Of a DNA stretch of 24,140 nucleotides, positions 666 through 24,016 are shown in pieces (position 1 is the stretch's first letter; the number at the start of each line of letters is the position of its first letter). The stretch is from a virus (lineage: Duplodnaviria > Heunggongvirae > Uroviricota > Caudoviricetes): positions 1 through 24,140 of the IMG/VR virus record IMGVR_UViG_2713896901_000009. One strand, 5' to 3'. A program made the position numbers and the translations under genes. The notes below the pieces were generated by a model. The model made no database searches. It worked only from the letters and a program-made list of their open reading frames with translations, and was not told where the DNA came from.

Positions 666-2690
666 TTATATTATACAGATTTCAATCTCTGCCATTGCTG
701 TATGTATCGGGCTAATTGCAGCCATATCAATTGAAACTCGCATGCCTCCTGCTCCTGCAGCAGATCTTGATATTGTGAATGCTCCACTCCGCCCAGCAGA
801 ATTTTGATGAACAACAGCGGGTGTAGATGTTGTTACATCCATAAACTTGATATCGCAAGTTGTCTGGTTTCTCCCATTAGACGCCAGTGTTGGTATGCTG
901 AGCATGTTATATTTCACATGGCATTGATGCCCTGCAGGGACAATAAAGAATCCGGCATTAGTTACATCCGTGCCATTAACTCGCGCGCTAATAGTAATCT
1001 TTCCATCTTCATGGAATCCATTATAACCAGCCCAGGCTGTTGATATTTTAGAGTCAGGAACTGGTCCGCTCGTTTCTCCAATAGCAGAGTAAGAGTTGCT
1101 TGAACTGAAAATAAATTGCCTAGAATCAAATTCACCAGCACCAGAAGGTGCGACAACTTTTAAAACCTCATTCACGGTCTGACTAAAACTATTTCCTTCA
1201 ATAAGCAAAGGAAATGCAAAGCCTCCGCTTAACACTGCTGTAGATTTAGTTACAAGAATATCAACCTGATTAGCCAGAAACCAGTTACCTGATATTGCCT
1301 TAGCACATTCAGATGCAGGATTTGTTACTGTCGATGGAATTGTTATTGATAATCCCACTGGATTGTTTTCAACAGTGTTACCAACAAAACTTAAAGCAAC
1401 ATTATACCCAAACACTGCACCCTGTACCGTGTTTTCAGAAATTGTACATCCATGTATTGTCTGACTTCCTGCGTGACCAGCTGCACTTAGTATAATTCCA
1501 GTTTGGTTTAAAACAAACTCGCAGCCAAAAAATCTATTTTGGTCTGAATATCCTTTCCCAGCAGTATTACGATCAATGCGAATACCAGTGCCACACCATA
1601 ATGTACGTATCCCGAAGAAGTTATTAAGATATACAGTTCCCATAAACCTAATGCCGTGGTCGAAATATCTAATATGCACATTCTCGAAAGAACACTCTCG
1701 CACATGATACAAGCCTCCATTTACTGTTTCGTCAACTGTTATCGCGTACTGACTCCATCCAGTTGACATGGCAGATACCCCTTCCAGCATAATGTCGCGG
1801 ATAACTACGCCAGTTATACCCCATTCAAAACGGTAACCATCTTCAACTGGAGTGAGGACAAATCCGTTAACCCCGACAGGAAATTTTAGACATGGCATTT
1901 GGCGAGCAGACACTGCAGATCCGCCATTGCCAGTGATTTTTATTGGTTTGCTGATTATCAGTGGTGCTGTAAGATTGTAATATAAAGGTGGCGTTTGTAC
2001 CGTTAGCGAACCGCCCCATGGGGTTGCATCGATAGCAGACTGAAAACCAGTTGTGTCATCATCTGTACCATTACCACTGGTGAACCAAACGGTTTTTATC
2101 TCATCGCCAATCTGTCGTTTCCATCTTTTTCCAGAAGCATCTACCAGTACAGTCCCACCGTTATCAGGTGTTGATGTGTCTGAAGCGTCAAGAAAAAACC
2201 AACCCTCACCCCCATCATTGTCATGTTCTCTTCCTACGCATTTTATTTGCGTTCCAGAAACGTTAGATGCCCTTATTTGTTCATAAGTCGCCCCAACAAT
2301 ATAAGACTCACCATCAACTGCTGCTAATTTGTCTATGAATGCTGGCAATGCCTGATCAGGGTCATACTTCAGCACATTAGGAAAATAGAACTGCTGCGCA
2401 CCATACGCATCATATACAGCCATAGAATGGCCTTGCACAGTTACAAACTTGGCTATTTGCCCGTTATATACCGGATATCCAGCAGCGTTAATGATGATGG
2501 GTTGCGAAACAGGAACGTGAGAACCGTCTTCGTTCTCCACATAAACCTGAATCTGGTTTTCAGGGTTTACCGGGTCAGTGTCAATTTTACCGATATAAAT
2601 TTTGCCATTGGCTACCGCTTTAAAAGAACGCGCCATAGTGAAGAGTTGCGAAGGCATACTCACTACAACATTAGCTGTAATGTCTGTCAT
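666..2690 (-). CDS. Tailspike protein: P22-type head-binding N-terminal domain fused to a distinct beta-helix receptor-binding/depolymerase domain
   Basis: 674 aa, ATG at 2690 with GGAG 8 nt upstream. The first ~110 aa ([13 protein letters not shown]...VLKYDPDQ) match the conserved head-binding domain of P22-family tailspikes as I recall it. The remainder is Gly/Asn/Thr/Val-rich, typical of parallel beta-helix tailspikes. Last gene of the late operon, as in P22. Confidence 0.9.
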
Positions 2691-2754
2691 TTAATTTGCT
2701 CCAGATACAAGGAATCGCCGCAGCATGGCTACGGTGAGTATTTGTTTGCTTTTT

Positions 2755-2777
2755 GCACTACACTTTTTGTGTAGTGC
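2755..2777. repeat. Perfect 9-bp inverted repeat with T5 spacer, flanked by 10-bp direct repeats GCTACGGTGA
   Basis: GCACTACAC-TTTTT-GTGTAGTGC at 2755-2777; direct repeats at 2728-2737 and 2806-2815. No U-tract follows on either strand, so it is not a canonical terminator. Confidence 0.5.
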
Positions 2778-2826
2778 TATCTCTCAAGGCCATAGCCGCT
2801 GAGTAGCTACGGTGAATTTTGGGCAT

Positions 2827-2850
2827 AAAAAAACCCAGCCGAAGCTGGGT
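2827..2850 (-). terminator. Rho-independent terminator downstream of ant
   Basis: Minus-strand RNA ACCCAGC-UUCG-GCUGGG followed by UUUUUUU (6-bp GC-rich stem, tetraloop, U7), 19 nt after the ant stop. Confidence 0.6.
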
Positions 2851-2868
2851 CGTTGCGTTGGTTATCTG

Positions 2869-3792
2869 TCAGTAGTTATGTACTGAAGGAGGCAATTCTT
2901 TATTCTTAAGTCTCATCCATGCGGAAAGATTCGTTGGTCCGTCTGGCTCATTGATATCAACATCTCGTGTGTGGTTGATTAAAACGTCTCTCGCCATTCC
3001 GATAACATACGAGAACTCATGACCGTAGTCGTAGCATCTGCCGGAATAGTTCGATTGAATTTGTTTTAATGCCGGATACAGTTCGCGGAATAATGCCTGT
3101 GAACGGTTGGCATAATCCCATAACCATACAAGGCTGTTTGCTTCTTTTGCAGAAAGCTCGTTGGTTTTCTTCTCTTGTTTTCCAATGAACTCACCTTCAA
3201 GTGGAACTCGAGCTGCAAGTGATAGTGCTTCGGTAAACTGCTCCTCACTGATTTCTTTGTACGAACATCCAAAATGGGATTTTAGTGACGACCACATGGT
3301 GATCATCGCCTTAGCCTGTTTTTCTTTTGGCAGAGACTGACCGCGACTCATGACGAGTTGTTTAATGGCTTCCTGCTGTTCAGTGGTGATTTTCCCCGGC
3401 AATGCCTTTTTAGCTTTGCGCGGGTTAATCACATGGCCTTTAGTCCAGTACTCGTAGAGCACATCGTCACACTCTTCCTGATACTGGATTACCTTGTCGC
3501 GGATTTCAGGGCGGACTTTGTTAGGACTGATGGTTTGCAGCCAGCCATTCAGTTTACGCAAAGCAAGGCAAATCATGGTCTGCACACCACCAACTGAAGG
3601 TATTGCGATTTCCACAATACCTTTAGCAAATCTTTGTTTTAACTTTGTAAACTGTGAAGCCCAATCCATACCCATGCCTTCAACGATAGGTTTCATTGGG
3701 GTATACGGTTCGCCGTTGTGATTGACGACATAAAGCTCTGCGCCGTGGAATGGCACGTTGATAGTAGATACTGCTGTTGCTATACTTTTCAT
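2869..3792 (-). CDS. ant: Antirepressor (Ant-like)
   Basis: 307 aa, ATG at 3792, directly downstream of the arc-like gene and upstream of tailspike, the P22 immI position of ant. The N-terminal region ([11 protein letters not shown]...[13 protein letters not shown]) resembles antirepressor N-terminal domains. Domain assignment is from memory. Confidence 0.65.
3758..3786 (+). promoter_or_regulatory. Candidate sigma70 promoter antisense to the ant 5' end (Psar-like)
   Basis: TTGATA (3758-3763), 17-bp spacer, TATACT (3781-3786). The predicted start near 3793 is directly opposite the ant start codon. Confidence 0.4.
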
Positions 3793-3860
3793 GTCAGTTT
3801 TTCCTCAAAATTTACTGGCGATTTAAGCCCGAGCTACTCGCAATAGCTTGGGCTTTACTC
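3793..3860 (+). ncRNA. Candidate sar-like antisense RNA covering the ant ribosome-binding site and start
   Basis: From the promoter above to a 12-bp stem-loop (AAGCCCGAGCTA / TAGCTTGGGCTT, 3825-3855) followed by TTTACTCATT. About 65-70 nt, the same size, position and orientation as P22 sar RNA. On the minus strand the hairpin has no U-tract, so arc-ant read-through is allowed. Confidence 0.4.
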
Positions 3861-4005
3861 ATTCTGGACAAACAATTCCATCCTTAGCTACTGACTCCTT
3901 TAGTCTCCTCAATACCTCATTACTGAACGACCGATCATCCTTTTTCGCGGACTGCTCCAAAGCCTTTTCCAGCCATTCTGGCATCCTTAATGTCTTAACT
4001 TTCAT
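3859..4005 (-). CDS. arc: Arc-like ribbon-helix-helix repressor (48 aa; below the ORF-track size cutoff)
   Basis: ATG at 4005 with AAGGAG 5 nt upstream, TGA at 3859-3861. Translation MKVKTLRMPEWLEKALEQSAKKDDRSFSNEVLRRLKESVAKDGIVCPE carries the Arc/Mnt RHH signature (LRMP ... RSxSNEV..RL.ES). Confidence 0.8.
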   Translation of the reverse strand: MKVKTLRMPEWLEKALEQSAKKDDRSFSNEVLRRLKESVAKDGIVCPE

Positions 4006-4023: not shown

Positions 4024-4073
4024 GGTACGCATACATAGTATTTAGGTACGCATTGATAGTCAATAGATACCTA
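4024..4073. promoter_or_regulatory. Operator-like repeats in the arc/mnt divergent control region
   Basis: Direct repeats GGTACGCAT at 4024-4032 and 4045-4053 (21 bp apart, flanking the -10 of the arc promoter). A 31-bp imperfect dyad TAGGTA...ATTGA-TAG-TCAAT...TACCTA at 4043-4073 overlaps the -35. Confidence 0.45.
4035..4063 (-). promoter_or_regulatory. Candidate promoter for arc-ant (Pant-like)
   Basis: Minus strand TTGACT (4063-4058), 17-bp spacer, TACTAT (4040-4035), about 30 nt upstream of the arc ATG. Confidence 0.45.
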
Positions 4074-4109
4074 CATATCCTGTGGTAAAAAATTATTCAG
4101 GATGCGCCG

Positions 4110-4361
4110 ATGTCTGATCGTAAGTACAAAAACCCTCAAGTGAATCTGAGGCTTCCTGTAGAGATAAAGGAGCGTCTTATTGAACTAGCTGAGGCTAATT
4201 CTCGTTCATTAAATGCTGAGATGGTCGCAGCACTTGAAGCATGGACCGAAAAAAACAAACACATTCAAGCACTAGATCTTGCAACTATAGCATCGCGACT
4301 GATAGAGCTTGAGCATGATGTTGAGAAGTTAAAATGTATGCATGGCAATGGTGAAAAATGA
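4110..4361 (+). CDS. mnt: Mnt-like ribbon-helix-helix repressor
   Basis: 83 aa. The N-terminus PQVNLRLPVEIKERLIELAEANSRSLNAEMVAAL matches the Arc/Mnt RHH fold pattern. Divergent from arc as in P22 immI. Confidence 0.8.
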   Translation: MSDRKYKNPQVNLRLPVEIKERLIELAEANSRSLNAEMVAALEAWTEKNKHIQALDLATIASRLIELEHDVEKLKCMHGNGEK

Positions 4362-4675
4362 AACGTATCGCTATCCTATTGCTCCTGTGTCTCTCGAGCA
4401 TAGCTAACGCAGAAACAAAATCAGACGATAGCAGTTTTGATGAAATACAAGGCCTCATGATAGCTTCGAAAATGGCTGGTATGTGTGGTGCAATCAAACA
4501 AATGGCAATATTCCAAGAATCTACAAACATGCCGGGTGGGAATGAATTCTTACAGAGATTCCTTACTACAGAGCAAGCAAGGCTTGGGATGACTCCGCAG
4601 CAATTTCTTGAAGCATGTCAGAAATCAATCTCTATTTATACCACCTATTACAATATGAGCTCTGAGAAAAAATAG
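4358..4675 (+). CDS. Small secreted protein of unknown function, translationally coupled to mnt
   Basis: 105 aa. ATG overlaps the mnt stop (ATGA). Sec-type signal peptide MKRIAILLLLCLSSIANA with AxA site; mature part has two Cys. No family recognised. Confidence 0.6.
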   Translation: MKRIAILLLLCLSSIANAETKSDDSSFDEIQGLMIASKMAGMCGAIKQMAIFQESTNMPGGNEFLQRFLTTEQARLGMTPQQFLEACQKSISIYTTYYNMSSEKK

Positions 4676-15681: not shown

Positions 15682-17850
15682 TTATTGAGGTGTCTCGGCT
15701 ACTCCGCCGGAGGGGATTTGAACTTGACGCATAAGATTCGCGAAATCCATGCGTTGTGAATGAGTCTGGTCTGCATCTTTAAGAAGCAGCTCAGCGTTAG
15801 CACGAGCATCTTTGCTGCGCTGTTGCTGGAATTGACCTACGAGCTTGAGGTACTCACGCAGTTCTGCCTGCTTGTCGAGGTCCATATTGTTGAAGATTTC
15901 TGCAATCTTCGCGGCGTTGAGTTGGTTTTGGGCTTCAACCTTGGCGGCTTCAACCTGAATCTGCGCCTGTTGGTTCTCTGCCTTGAGCAATTCAGCCTGA
16001 CCTTGCAGAAGGATACCCTGCGCCTGAATTTGCTCTGCTGATGGCTGCTGCGGCTGTTGTTGTGCCTGCTGCACCATCTCCATCTCTTCAGGTGTTTCTG
16101 GTTTCTTCAGCCCCATCATCACCAGTTGCTTGTTCGCGTACTCTCGCATCATCTCGACGCCTTTACCGTCAAGCAGCGTGAAGTATTGCAGCATCAGCAT
16201 CTGGAACTCTGGAGTACCTTGCGGAACCTTGGTGAGCAACTCCTGAATCTCTGCGCGGTTCTGTTCCTTCATACTCTGGAAGGATGGTCCGACGTCTGTA
16301 TAGCACTCATAGCGACCGCGAATGTCGTTGAGTGTGACCACATTGCCGGACTGGTAATCGACAACTTGCGCATAGAGTTGAACGTCTTTCTCGCTTCCAT
16401 CTTCAAGTGTCAGCGTTACATGACGAGGAACGTCATAAATATCGTTGACCATTGAGGCATAAATCTCGCCATCACGTCGCATTGCGGTAGCCAGGTTATC
16501 CTGAAACACGTATGTCTCAAGGTCTGCCCGCATGTTCAGTTGATTGACGGTATCGAAAGCGACCTGAGAGTTTGCTGCCTGCGCATCCACACCAAGACTA
16601 GCCACCTCTTTCACTGCGTTGGTGGCAGCCTCAAGCATGTAAGCGTTGGCTTGCGGCACTTCAGGGTTTTCCATGTAGGAGATTGGACCAATCGGCAGGT
16701 CGTTACCGTTTTCATCGGTCTTGTTCTGCAGATAGTACGGATAGTCATCATTTCCACCGTACATGTATTCGTAGCCTTCGATTTGCTCAGGGAAGAAGGT
16801 CGGTTTCTTCTTCGGTGAACGAGCAACAATATCGGCGTTGAATGACATGATCATGTTACGAAGGCGCTGACCGTCTTTCGTCAGCCTTACCACTCCTTCG
16901 TAGCACTCCTTGTCACCAGCGAATGACCATTCGCCATACACTGGAACGATTGGAATATGCTCTCCGGCTATCTTCTCGCGGTCTTTCAGTATCTGCGTGC
17001 AGGTGATGATCGACTTATACACACGCCGACGCTTCACCTTGCGCTCTGCTACCTTAATGAATCCACGATTAGCCAGGTCGTCGATAACGTCTTTAATATC
17101 CTGCTGGTAATAGCTGACCGGCTCACCTGTCAGCGGGTCGCGGTAGATGAAAACTTTCTCTTTCTTCTCTTCTACCTCGTAATACTCAGCGACGTAGACG
17201 ACATCATTCGATACCCACGGAAACAGCCATGTATCGTTTGGATTCTGGAAAGATGGCAGCGTGTCAGGATCAATACCGTAATCCTCTGCGAACTCTTTCC
17301 AGCCATTGCGTGACAAGGCGTTAATCACCGTGCAGTGCTTAGCGTCGCTCTTATCCATCTGCTTGCTGTTGGCGTCCCATATGACGTGTGAGCAGGCCTC
17401 ATGGATTGGCAGGCGTCTGATTACCTGATTGTTGCTTGTTGGGTCGTTGTCTTCGTACTGTGTGACCAGACGCCATGCACCAACGCCGGACTCTATCTGC
17501 TCACGAACGCCAACGTTAACGGCAATCTTTGCCGTGTTATGGCGCATATCAGTACGATACATCCCCATCAACACATCGGCTGCATCAGGATTAGCGCCGT
17601 CTTTTGGTCGGAAGAGAACGTCGATAGGGTTCCGGCGCATCTCTGCGACCAGTTTCCTGACCACCGGGCGAACAACATCGAATTGTCCGCGATATTGCAG
17701 GGTAGTGTAGTTTGATAGCCAGTCATCCCATTGGCTTATGCGACTGAAGTATAAATCGTTAGAAGCTTCTGTTCTCGCCTCGTCGGAAGACATCCAATCA
17801 ACATCGAATGCTTGCAGTATCTTATTTAATCGCTCTGCGTTGTCAGTCAT
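15682..17850 (-). CDS. Portal protein, P22 gp1-like
   Basis: 722 aa. Segments such as [29 protein letters not shown] and the Gln-rich C-terminal barrel region match P22 portal as recalled. Confidence 0.9.
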
Positions 17851-17900: not shown

Positions 17901-18401
17901 GTGAGCCATCCATCTATAGAAGATATAAGGAAAAATTTCACATACGATGCTGAAACCGGAATTTTGTACGCGGCTAATCGCACAAGGAGGACAGACCTTA
18001 ACGGCAAGCCCGTTGGGTGCCAGCATGGAAACGGATACCTTGATGTAAGGCTTGGTAAAAAACTGTACTACGTGCACAGAATTTGTTTTGCGCACTACTA
18101 TGGTTACTGGCCCGAAGCAGTAGATCACATAAACGGAAACCGTGCTGATAACCGCATCTGTAATCTTAGAGATGCCAATAAGCAGTTGAACGGACTAAAC
18201 CGTGGCATGGATTGCGACAATTCAACTGGATACAAAGGAGTTTCCTATCGCAAGGACACAAATAACTACATGTGGCAATTTGTGGTAGAAGGCAAGAAAT
18301 ACACAAAAAGCGGATTCGCTACAGCATTAGATGCATACAAGCATAAGGTAGCATTTATTAACGCTCTGAATTCCGCTGCCTCTGAATTTCTCAAGCCGTA
18401 A
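17901..18401 (+). CDS. HNH homing-type endonuclease with AP2-like DNA-binding region
   Basis: 166 aa. GTG start with AGGAGA 7 nt upstream. Motif YYVHRICFAHYYGYWPEAVDHINGNRADNRICNLRDA is an HNH signature. On the opposite strand to all flanking structural genes, filling the terminase-portal junction with 9 nt and 50 nt gaps. Confidence 0.8.
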   Translation: MSHPSIEDIRKNFTYDAETGILYAANRTRRTDLNGKPVGCQHGNGYLDVRLGKKLYYVHRICFAHYYGYWPEAVDHINGNRADNRICNLRDANKQLNGLNRGMDCDNSTGYKGVSYRKDTNNYMWQFVVEGKKYTKSGFATALDAYKHKVAFINALNSAASEFLKP

Positions 18402-18410
18402 CAACAGTAT

Positions 18411-19913
18411 CTATCTTGTTGACCGTGCGATGGGCCTGATTGGGGCTGGTATCTTTTTCTCTTTTGGTTTTTTGATGTCGCGCATCATTTTTGCGAAGCG
18501 GCGCATCATGTATGCATAGCGAACGGCGGATAGCACGTCATCGTTAAGCTTGACGATTTTCCCGTTTTCATCACGGTGATAGAGGCGGAACTCCTCAAAG
18601 AATGGCTCACAGGTGTTGAATACTTTGAAGCGACCATCGAGCATCATGTCGCGCAATTCAGTGATGCCAGGCTCCACAGCGTTACCGCCATCAGGCCATG
18701 TCGCATGCTCCTGCAACATCATAAAACCAGCGTCGGCATACTGCCCTTTGAGCTGCTCACCGCCGCCCTTCTCATGCTGGTTTCCGTCATGAGGCCATGC
18801 GGTTGGCACTTTATGCGCCCATGATTTAACGGCTCCCCAAGCCTGAACGGCTGTTTTTTCTTTCGCCTTCCACACGCGTGAAACGTAGATTGTGTCTGCA
18901 TCTTTATCCCACCAAAGCTGAACATGCGCCTGCGGGTGATCCCATCCGAAATCCATCCCGCCAATTACGTAGAAGTGATCAGGACACTCGAACGGCTGAC
19001 ACTTAATCGTCTCTTCCGGTATCTGGAAGATTCGCCCGCTACCCATCGTAGGAATACCGCGAGCACGCGCCTCTCTCTCATGCTCAGGATAGGATGCGAT
19101 GATTTGCTCTTTCTGCTCGTCGGTGTAGTGCTCAGCGTCATAGATGGTCATGTTGACCACTTTCTGAGACTTGCTGGGATCCTTCAGGAACTTGGTAACA
19201 ACGTCAGACATCCCCATCAGCGGGGTAAACGTCAGAATTGAGAATTGCCCGTATTTGTTGGTACGGGTAAGCCCTTCGCCATAAATGCTGTATGGTGGTT
19301 CTTCGTCAAACCACACGCCGTGGATTGTGTCACCCTGCCAGCGAGCGCGGCCTTGCGAGTATGGTTTGAAGTAGCAGATTGAAATGCCATCTTCAACGCC
19401 ATCAGCCGTGTGATGCTTAACCAGAAGATGATCAACAAGGTTCGGAAAGAAAGGAGACTTCTTCCAGCTAATGATGTCTTCTTTCGGTATGGAACCGTAG
19501 CCAGGCTCATCATTCTCTTCGATACGACCGCACAGGATGCGTTGAGTCGTTTTGGTTACAGTCTCGTTTGTCTCTCCACCAATCCAGAAGACAACAGGCT
19601 CATAGAAACGCTTACCTTTCCACTCCCCACCATATTTACCATCAGCCGGATATCCTTTTGTTCCTGGATAACGTCCGGTAAGGTGAAACGCGACTTCAGC
19701 AGCACCAGTAAATGACTTACCAAGCTGGTTACCAGCCATAAAACAGCGCTCTGGATAGTCATGCCCGGCGTCGATGAACTCACGCTGTTTGCTGTATGGC
19801 GTAAATTCATATAGCAGGTGTGTGTTCCGGTAGTTCTCTTCTTCTTCGAGTTGCTCGAGCAATTCTATTTGCTCTTCGTCGCTCAAGTTATCAAGAATCG
19901 CGTCCAGTTCCAC
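18411..19913 (-). CDS. Terminase large subunit, P22 gp2-like
   Basis: 500 aa, with ATPase and nuclease regions. Overlaps the terS 3' end by 23 nt. Confidence 0.9.
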
Positions 19914-23281: not shown

Positions 23282-23357
23282 TGGTGCTGGTTAACGGACT
23301 TGAACCGCTACCCATTCGCTTACAAGGCGACTGCTCTACCATTAGAGCTAAACCAGC
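23282..23357 (-). tRNA. tRNA-Thr (anticodon UGU)
   Basis: 76 nt. 7-bp acceptor stem GCTGGTT/AACCAGC, D-arm GCTC-TAATGGTA-GAGC, anticodon loop CTTGTAA, T-arm AGCGG-TTCAAGT-CCGTT (one G.U), discriminator A, encoded CCA. Confidence 0.85.
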
Positions 23358-23362
23358 ATGTT

Positions 23363-23437
23363 TGGCGGGACAGCGTGGACTCGAACCACGATAAGAAGGT
23401 TAACAGCCTTCCGTAATGACCTTTATACGACTGACCC
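23363..23437 (-). tRNA. tRNA-Asn (anticodon GUU), with noncanonical features
   Basis: 75 nt. Perfect anticodon stem GAAGG/CCTTC with loop CTGTTAA, T-arm CGTGG-TTCGAGT-CCACG, encoded CCA. But there is a T-T mismatch at acceptor pair 4-69 and only a 3-bp D-stem. Confidence 0.6.
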
Positions 23438-23527: not shown

Positions 23528-24016
23528 CTATGCTACATGTTTAATTTTCTCTACACGTTTCCGGTTTTTAAACGCACTATCCAGAACCGGGTAAATCATA
23601 AACAACGAGGCATTGAGGATTTCGTCAACTTCCCGGCGACAGGTTGCGAGCGATGGTTTTTGAATGCGCCCGCCACCCCGGCATAACATCTTGCGAGGTC
23701 TTGCGACGCGATGATAGTAAGATGCAATGGCGTGCTTAGATGAACCATGAGCGTAGTAGCTGAGGAGGATGCCAAAGGCTTTCTTGTCAATATACATGAC
23801 GGAATCGACGACCTGAGAAATCAACATTCCATCATCATCATTACACATTGGCCTTGTCATAACTCTTCCCGGCTCTACGCTCTCCATGAACTTCGCTATT
23901 ACGCTGCTCATGCGCTTTTCCAGACGACCTGAATAAACCCATGCGCCCCACAGTTCAAGCCAGCCATTCAGCCACTCGTGCTGTTCTTTGGTGAGGTTTA
24001 GTTCTCTTATGCCCAT
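23528..24016 (-). CDS. Q: Late-gene antiterminator Q (phage 82/21-type Q family)
   Basis: 162 aa. Contains ELWGAWV and RPMCNDDDGMLI motifs that align with the WGAW / RPxCxDDD signature of Q-like antiterminators. GGGAG 7 nt upstream of the ATG. Sits directly upstream of the lysis cassette. Confidence 0.75.
   Translation of the reverse strand: MGIRELNLTKEQHEWLNGWLELWGAWVYSGRLEKRMSSVIAKFMESVEPGRVMTRPMCNDDDGMLISQVVDSVMYIDKKAFGILLSYYAHGSSKHAIASYYHRVARPRKMLCRGGGRIQKPSLATCRREVDEILNASLFMIYPVLDSAFKNRKRVEKIKHVA

Follow-up and report, generated by a model that had tools for sequence, protein, structure and literature searches.

The sar RNA is the textbook antisense RNA of phage P22. The element lying antisense to the arc–ant junction in the 24,140-nt window (the whole stretch of viral DNA analysed here) is, as judged by its sequence and position, a diverged copy of the P22 sar gene and an ordinary member of that known family. 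Very probably, it encodes a cis-antisense RNA of 67–69 nt that pairs with the ribosome-binding site of ant and limits antirepressor synthesis. Sequence features, homology and position relative to P22, conservation, covariation and strand bias were computed for this analysis, and transcription, the RNA ends and repression are carried over from P22. The initial annotation had proposed a match to the architecture of the P22 sar RNA, and this proposal was supported by the alignment with P22, by a full-length match to the Rfam family RF00262 and by the immI gene set found around the element. For this locus, the result is confirmatory.

The window corresponds to the late half of an E. coli prophage that is P22-like (Lederbergvirus-type). 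The sequence around the element is shared at 100% identity with prophages of E. coli UMNF18 and about 30 further complete genomes, where it lies next to bioA/ybhB, and the remainder of the window matches the virion genes of P22-like phages. The genes surrounding the element are, by their domains, the P22 immI set (mnt–arc–ant), and ant, arc and mnt are all intact (Table 1). The Arc protein of the window shares 46 of its 48 residues with that of Salmonella phage SEN22, and the same 147-nt arc gene is named Arc family DNA-binding protein in RefSeq. The Pant-like site overlaps the Pmnt-like site, back to back, and an 18-nt imperfect palindrome (4039–4077), and Pant and Pmnt overlap likewise in the immI region of the P22 record. 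It had been anticipated that gene callers would miss the antisense element, and this was borne out by RefSeq, which gives no annotation between ant and arc in an E. coli genome that is sequence-identical here; the sar element is also unannotated in the records of phages CUS-3, SEN22 and ES2.

Table 1. Features of the mnt–arc–ant region and of the predicted antisense RNA (positions in the window).
Feature	Position	Strand	Description and basis
Tailspike	666–2690	−	P22 head-binding domain
ant, antirepressor, 307 aa	2869–3792	−	Pfam P22_AR_N (E = 5e-45), P22_AR_C (E = 6e-30); ATG 3792–3790, SD 3806–3801
Psar −35 hexamer TTGATA	3758–3763	+	Inside ant codons 10–12; 5/6 consensus; promoter scan
Psar extended −10 TGcTATACT	3778–3786	+	Inside ant codons 2–5; promoter scan
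Predicted sar-type antisense RNA, about 67–69 nt	3793–3861	+	Rfam RF00262, covariance model, P22 equivalence
Stem-loop 1, GUCAGU pairing with ACUGGC, 6 bp, 15-nt loop	3793–3819	+	Fold, consensus structure
Anti-Shine–Dalgarno UUCCUC, in the loop of stem-loop 1	3801–3806	+	Sequence; complements the ant SD GAGGAA
Stem-loop 2, predicted intrinsic-terminator hairpin, 12 bp, 7-nt loop, dG −18.2 kcal/mol	3825–3855	+	Fold
Terminator tail UACUCAUU, 4 U of 8	3856–3863	+	Runs over the final codon and the stop codon of arc
arc, 48 aa, upstream gene of the arc–ant operon	3859–4005	−	Pfam Arc 25.1 bits (cut-off 20.4)
Pant-like promoter, TTGACT/17 nt/TACTAT, for arc–ant, convergent with Psar	4035–4063	−	Promoter scan
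Pmnt-like promoter, divergent, overlapping the Pant-like site	4053–4081		Promoter scan
mnt-like repressor gene, 83 aa	4110–4361	+	Pfam Arc domain E = 3e-10; annotated mnt in the CUS-3 homologue

The predicted RNA would be transcribed from a sigma-70 promoter with an extended −10 element (Psar), placed in ant codons 2–12 and firing against ant. The near-consensus antisense promoter that the initial annotation had reported in the 5' end of ant was found as described, with TTGATA, a 17-nt spacer and TATACT at 3781–3786, matching the consensus at 10 of 12 positions and carrying a TG extension at 3778–3779. When both strands of the whole 24-kb window were scanned with a strict criterion (at least 10/12 matches plus a TG-extended −10), two sites were obtained, Psar among them, compared with an average of 0.28 sites in dinucleotide shuffles. 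With a loose criterion, the 1.1-kb region contained 3 promoter-like sites for 2.0 expected, which is no excess, and the Psar match is therefore convincing solely in combination with its position and conservation. The TATACT hexamer is the same in P22, where the record annotates the sar promoter and the −35 is the weaker GTGTTA. Most relatives with the same type of Ant N-terminus present TTGAT(A/T/G) as the −35, and TGnTAnnnT was found 4–7 nt ahead of the RNA start in 23 of the 25 other species. Since Psar lies within coding sequence, its conservation partly reflects that of the Ant N-terminus; the TG extension and the fixed distance between the −10 and the RNA start persist in different genera, also in those whose Ant codons are not the same.

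By analogy with P22, the 5' end of the RNA is placed at about G3793, the base adjoining the ant start codon, and its 3' end is placed from the terminator, by the end of arc, so that the RNA would be about 67–69 nt long. The 15-nt loop of the first stem-loop would present UUCCUC, the complement of the ant Shine–Dalgarno sequence GAGGAA located 9–14 nt upstream of the ATG. This complementarity is perfect by construction, as the RNA is cis-antisense, and in alignments of homologues the UUCC/CUCC motif is nearly invariant. Complementarity to both the Shine–Dalgarno sequence and the start codon of ant had been claimed for the RNA; the former part holds, with 3801–3806 as the complement, and the latter does not, given the 5' end that is placed beside the AUG. 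The 5' stem-loop (3793–3819) with its anti-Shine–Dalgarno motif was absent from the initial annotation.

The second stem-loop is formed by AAGCCCGAGCUA (3825–3836) and UAGCUUGGGCUU (3844–3855), with 12 bp including one G·U, and begins 32 nt past the predicted RNA start. It is G+C-rich and occupies the 66-nt arc–ant gap, bounded by the ant ATG (3792–3790, minus strand) and the arc stop codon (3861–3859), with its end at the arc stop codon. Both the 12-bp hairpin within this gap and the short T-run after it (4 T in 8 nt), as described earlier, were confirmed. The 76-nt plus-strand RNA has a folding energy of −25.7 kcal/mol (z = −5.2), which is not reached by any of 200 shuffles. The shared tail, ...CAUUCUGG, corresponds on the opposite strand to the C-terminal codons of Arc, Cys-Pro-Glu-stop, so the U-tract is constrained by coding. 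Stem-loop 2 with its short T-run (4/8 T) was not called by a generic terminator scan. With a U-tract this poor and the terminator scan silent, polymerase could partly read through, which would lengthen the RNA beyond the predicted size. The terminator of P22 sar, which is experimentally known, has 3/8 T after the stem, and its hairpin stability and tail are comparable to those of the window. A YUNR U-turn was considered by eye as a common loop feature and dropped, as it is present in the loops of the window (CUCA and CUCG) and not in those of P22.

The P22 record (NC_002371) describes sar as a 70-nt misc_RNA that begins at the base adjoining the ant ATG and reaches the arc stop codon; its promoter lies within ant and its terminator within the arc–ant gap. 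The window element aligns position for position with the annotated P22 RNA, promoter and terminator. Identical in both are TTGCTATACT..CATG, the AAGCCC/GGGCUU base of the terminator and UUUUUC of loop 1, and the differences in the stems are compensated, with A-U to G-C and G-C to A-U changes in the upper terminator stem as examples. A permissive local search of 451 nt with the Rfam sar model gave a match at 3793–3859 (+) covering model positions 1–68 of 68, with 29.3 bits and E = 6e-4, and RF00262 was the sole credible RNA-family match in this search. The score is below the RF00262 gathering threshold of 43 bits, which is a curation cut-off and not a biological feature. A default Rfam search of the whole window at gathering level returned two tRNAs only and no sar match, and it is because of its sub-threshold score that the element is unannotated by databases. 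Across 19 related loci, the Rfam sar scores fall continuously from 97.8 bits in P22 to 28.5 bits, with the match in the same place throughout; 8 of the 19 variant types are below the threshold, and two more are undetected. A covariance model built here matched 3793–3867 with 70.2 bits as its sole match in the window, the window being one of the 20 seed sequences of the model. A literature search for RF00262 found nothing.

Homologues were gathered by means of the Ant N-terminal domain, and IMG/VR contigs with an Ant at least 80% identical were retained (n = 80). All 80 viral contigs, which represent about 30 distinct sequences, were found with the covariance model to carry exactly one copy, antisense and abutting the ant start. 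In 20 distinct variants, RNAalifold returned two hairpins with 17 pairs, 9 of which showed compensatory changes. In the same variants, 94.7% of cells were paired, compared with 32–50% when the partners were slid by 1–3 columns, and none of 500 shuffles reached the observed pairing or covariation score. Compensatory changes were observed in 3 of the 5 scored pairs of stem-loop 1 in the 20-sequence alignment. For stem-loop 2, they were observed in 8 of the 12 pairs in a MAFFT alignment of 40 homologues, in which 94.4% of cells were paired compared with 30–63% with slid partners. On this 40-sequence alignment, RNAalifold recovered stem-loop 2 and did not recover stem-loop 1, as the variable loop length of the latter scrambled the alignment; single-sequence folds gave the same two hairpins in about 38 of the 40 homologues. 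The initial annotation had staked its reading on the promoter and hairpin being conserved in relatives that keep arc–ant, and both are, with covariation. Two open reading frames on the plus strand (3718–3846 and 3777–3887) were rejected as a small protein, since the indels of homologues are not multiples of three and the covariation is of the RNA type.

When the covariance model was applied to 80 GTDB loci from different species, an element ending at the ant start was obtained in about 25. The genera with the element included Lonsdalea, Mangrovibacter, Erwinia, Citrobacter, Mixta, Raoultella and Klebsiella, as well as Yersinia, Xenorhabdus, Photorhabdus, Proteus, Providencia and Pectobacterium. 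The about 25 species bearing it are mostly Enterobacterales and belong to many genera. The model gave weaker matches in Acidovorax and Comamonas and in a metagenome-assembled Armatimonadia genome, and the Stx2-converting phage 1717 carries the element too. Where the element is present, an Arc-like ORF tends to lie directly upstream of ant (18/8 vs. 7/46; Fisher p = 1e-6). By blastn, the 121-nt element retrieved 7 phage records only, most of them matching just the ant-coding part.

The hairpin might belong to the arc–ant mRNA, as an intercistronic stabiliser, an RNase site or a Pant attenuator; the promoter match would then simply arise from the N-terminal codons of Ant, and a functional antisense RNA would not be produced. 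This reading could draw on the fact that the complementary strand forms a hairpin too and that the promoter sits in coding sequence, and it was nevertheless judged highly unlikely. The helices contain 58 G·U cells vs. 3 A·C cells; with the sar sequence, 94.7% of cells are paired, and with the mRNA sequence, 78.3%. As the wobble pairs are kept as G·U on the plus strand and would be A·C on the mRNA strand, these values mark the sar strand as the folded strand. The mRNA strand just marginally beats its shuffles (z = −2.2, compared with −5.2 for the sar strand), and on it the stem is followed by AAAUCGCC, with no U-run, so that transcription towards ant does not meet an intrinsic terminator here. 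Additionally, the retention of the TG extension and of the −10 spacing across genera with differing Ant codons speaks against a coding by-product, and the P22 homologue of the element has been proven to encode an antisense RNA (PMC12197685). A terminator of the arc–ant transcript was also considered and rejected, as the mRNA strand is without a U-run and the wobble pairs become mismatches on it.

It is likewise improbable, if somewhat less so, that the RNA is made and that control is exerted mainly by transcriptional interference between Psar and Pant, through polymerase collision or promoter occlusion, and not by pairing with the ribosome-binding site. Psar (3758–3786, +) and the Pant-like promoter (4063–4035, −) stand face to face about 235 nt apart, and the −35 of the window is nearer to the consensus than that of P22, so Psar may be stronger here. 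Interference alone, however, would not select two covarying hairpins or an anti-Shine–Dalgarno motif held in a loop, and the reviews on P22 state that sar pairs with the ribosome-binding site and acts in trans (PMC10732415, PMC12197685). The two mechanisms are compatible and not mutually exclusive, and convergent interference may contribute. A decaying sar relic, whose function was lost in this prophage lineage (for example through poor termination or lost pairing kinetics), has very little probability. Its low Rfam score and weak U-tract would be consistent with decay, prophage modules often decay, and degraded ant or arc genes occur in some P22-like phages (PMC2629481). Against this stand the intact ant, arc and mnt genes of the window and the stem differences from P22, which are compensated and not disruptive. 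A variant 89–99% identical to that of the window, with compensated changes, is present in Salmonella phage SEN22 and several viral contigs, and the hairpin stability and tail resemble those of the functional P22 terminator.

The preferred explanation remains an antisense RNA directed at the ant ribosome-binding site. The RNA would be fully complementary to the arc–ant intercistronic leader and would pair with the arc–ant mRNA derived from Pant. On the mRNA strand, the ant Shine–Dalgarno sequence lies in the loop of a weak complementary hairpin, and the anti-Shine–Dalgarno motif of loop 1 facing it is compatible, on the modelled folds, with initiation by loop–loop pairing. Pairing would probably begin in this manner and hide the ant ribosome-binding site. 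Translation of Ant would be limited and arc spared, which would favour the establishment of lysogeny and prevent runaway Ant synthesis. In P22, sar pairs with the ant ribosome-binding site, blocks translation initiation and can act in trans (PMC12197685, PMC10732415). Post-transcriptional repression of Ant synthesis, known from P22 only, is credited in these two sources to Wu et al. 1987 and Liao et al. 1987, and the primary work on P22 is given in the reference list of PMC2629481 as Liao et al. 1987, Wu et al. 1987 and Schaefer & McClure 1997. P22 sar was also detected by small-RNA sequencing during infection (PMC13397905). The antirepressor of the window prophage is almost certainly under P22-like three-layer control, comprising Mnt, Arc and the sar RNA.

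The variant of the window is invisible to standard annotation, being sub-threshold in Rfam and missing from the RefSeq and GenBank records examined. From the comparative set of about 40 distinct variants, which show covariation in both helices, the family model could be built anew so that roughly twice as many sar genes would be recognised. The rebuilt model would cover Shiga-toxin phages, where antirepressor control affects prophage induction. A wider reading, advanced tentatively and considered rather doubtful, is that the sar family is much larger and more modular than its curated model implies, with many sequence types, two stem-loops that reassort independently, a recombination joint at the conserved TTGCTATACT/ant start, spread by means of arc–ant modules, and types that represent specificity classes of a trans-acting RNA. 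Its spread would reach past the P22-like podoviruses to Stx-converting siphoviruses and many Enterobacterales genera, and possibly Betaproteobacteria. Since sar can act in trans, distinct types, that of the window included, could work as such classes; an antirepressor brought in by an infecting phage would then be silenced by a resident prophage solely if both were of the same type, in analogy with the c4 heteroimmunity of P1/P7.

Other small phage RNAs share some of these characteristics. The c4 RNA of P1/P7 and the CA RNA of N15 also block ant synthesis around the ribosome-binding site, with recognition in loops (PMC12197685, PMC10732415). However, c4 is processed from the transcript of its own target and pairs via short complementary boxes, whereas the RNA of the window would be a convergent, fully complementary cis-antisense RNA; its promoter is convergent and not co-directional with ant, and no match to an Rfam c4-type family was found in the window. 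The OOP RNA of lambdoid phages is likewise short and cis-antisense, with a constitutive promoter of its own, a terminator hairpin and an influence on the choice between lysis and lysogeny (PMC12197685). In contrast to sar, which masks a ribosome-binding site, OOP lies across the 3' end of cII and favours decay of the mRNA; the sequences are unrelated. Closer to the window are the Sar genes predicted by homology only in other P22-like phages, such as epsilon34, where the term 'ant moron' is used (PMC2629481). These belong to the same module and sit at the same genome position, flanked by the ejection-protein genes and the tailspike gene; the reported ones are near P22 sar, whereas the variant of the window (SEN22, E. 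coli prophages) belongs to the roughly half of variant types that lie below the Rfam threshold.

The closest known system is P22 sar itself, from which the element of the window differs in several respects. The RNA of the window is about 58% identical to that of P22 in the alignment, with several stem positions changed on both sides, loop 2 has 7 nt compared with 4–5 nt in P22, the −35 TTGATA is closer to the consensus, and the Rfam score is 29.3 bits compared with 97.8 bits. The Arc proteins are about 27% identical (15 of 55 aligned positions) and the Ant N-termini 47%, and the host of the window prophage is E. coli, that of P22 being Salmonella. Among the characters of the sar family, the position, an own promoter (by sequence), the two stem-loops and the complementarity to the Shine–Dalgarno sequence are all present, and the 43-bit score is the one that is lacking. 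As in P22, the locus is antisense to the arc–ant intercistronic region of an immI module, with a promoter in the first ant codons that includes the identical TTGCTATACT and a predicted 5' end that adjoins the ant start codon. The predicted RNA belongs to the same length class (67–69 nt) and would carry two hairpins, with the anti-Shine–Dalgarno motif in loop 1 and the terminator at the arc stop codon.

In the antisense sar RNAs of the related ant loci (L001-L085), stem-loop 1 and stem-loop 2 come in several sequence types that reassort, the P22-type stem-loop 2, for instance, being joined to three different stem-loop 1 types. The window-type sar accompanies the window-type Arc at these loci, but in phage SEN22 it occurs with a P22-type Ant N-terminus. 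These combinations suggest that the conserved TTGCTATACT/ant start serves as a joint for recombination. Approximately half of the variant types among L001-L085 score below the gathering threshold of the Rfam sar model (RF00262, 43 bits). Weaker sar-model matches, of 29-35 bits, were obtained beyond the Enterobacterales, in Acidovorax (L141), Comamonas (L138) and an Armatimonadia metagenome-assembled genome (L157). As each lies directly upstream of an ant homologue and has an adjoining Arc-like ORF, the arc-sar-ant arrangement may extend beyond Gammaproteobacteria.

A full mnt-like/arc-like/sar-like/ant module was also observed in the Stx2-converting phage 1717 (NC_011357), a lambdoid siphovirus (Pankowvirus), where it is inserted among the tail genes. 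Phage CUS-3 (CP000711) was reported in the epsilon34 paper to be apparently without arc (PMC2629481). An Arc-like ORF lies in a CUS-3 region whose only annotation is "bsq2 boundary sequence", separated from the sar terminator by a small Cys-rich ORF.

Coordinates of the features in the window and in related loci
Feature	Location	Strand	Remarks
Tandem 21-bp direct repeats (GGTACGCAT...), two	Window, 4024-4044 and 4045-4065		76% identical
Imperfect palindrome, 18 nt	Window, 4039-4056 with 4060-4077
ORF, 105 aa	Window, 4358-4675	+	Overlaps mnt stop codon
Portal-sized ORF	Window, 15682-17850	-	By size
Promoter-like site (TTGTCA, 18 nt, TAAAAT with TG)	Window, from 17840	+	Directly upstream of HNH_3 ORF
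HNH_3 ORF, 166 aa, GTG start	Window, 17901-18401	+	HNH_3 endonuclease domain, E = 2e-13
Terminase-large-subunit-sized ORF	Window, 18411-19913	-	By size
Adjacent tRNA genes Thr-TGT and Asn-GTT	Window, 23282-23437	-
Q-type antiterminator ORF	Window, 23528-24016	-	Pfam Phage_antitermQ, E = 9e-25
Weaker sar-model matches	L141, L138, L157, about 594-676	-
Module	Phage 1717 (L086), 2150-2840
sar-like element	Phage 1717 (L086), 2165-2238		58.5 bits, own covariance model; absent from record's annotation
arc-like ORF	Phage 1717 (L086), 2235-2408		Absent from record's annotation
Region with Arc-like ORF (MKVKTLRMPEKLEK...) and small Cys-rich ORF	CUS-3 (L001), 2560-2895		Arc-like ORF without annotation

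In the window, the HNH_3 ORF occupies the ~560-bp gap between the portal-sized and terminase-large-subunit-sized ORFs, runs opposite to the late operon and looks like an inserted moron of the homing-endonuclease type. The promoter-like site preceding it is the only strong one in the window other than Psar. The tRNA pair lies directly downstream of the Q-type antiterminator ORF, where the late operon begins.

The 105-aa ORF has a signal-peptide-like N-terminus (MKRIAILLLLCLSSIANA) and no Pfam match, and is entered in RefSeq as a hypothetical protein of an identical E. coli prophage. Both the direct repeats and the palindrome overlap the Pant-like and Pmnt-like promoters, which lie back to back. 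They probably serve as operators for Arc and Mnt, and their sequence differs from that of the P22 operators.
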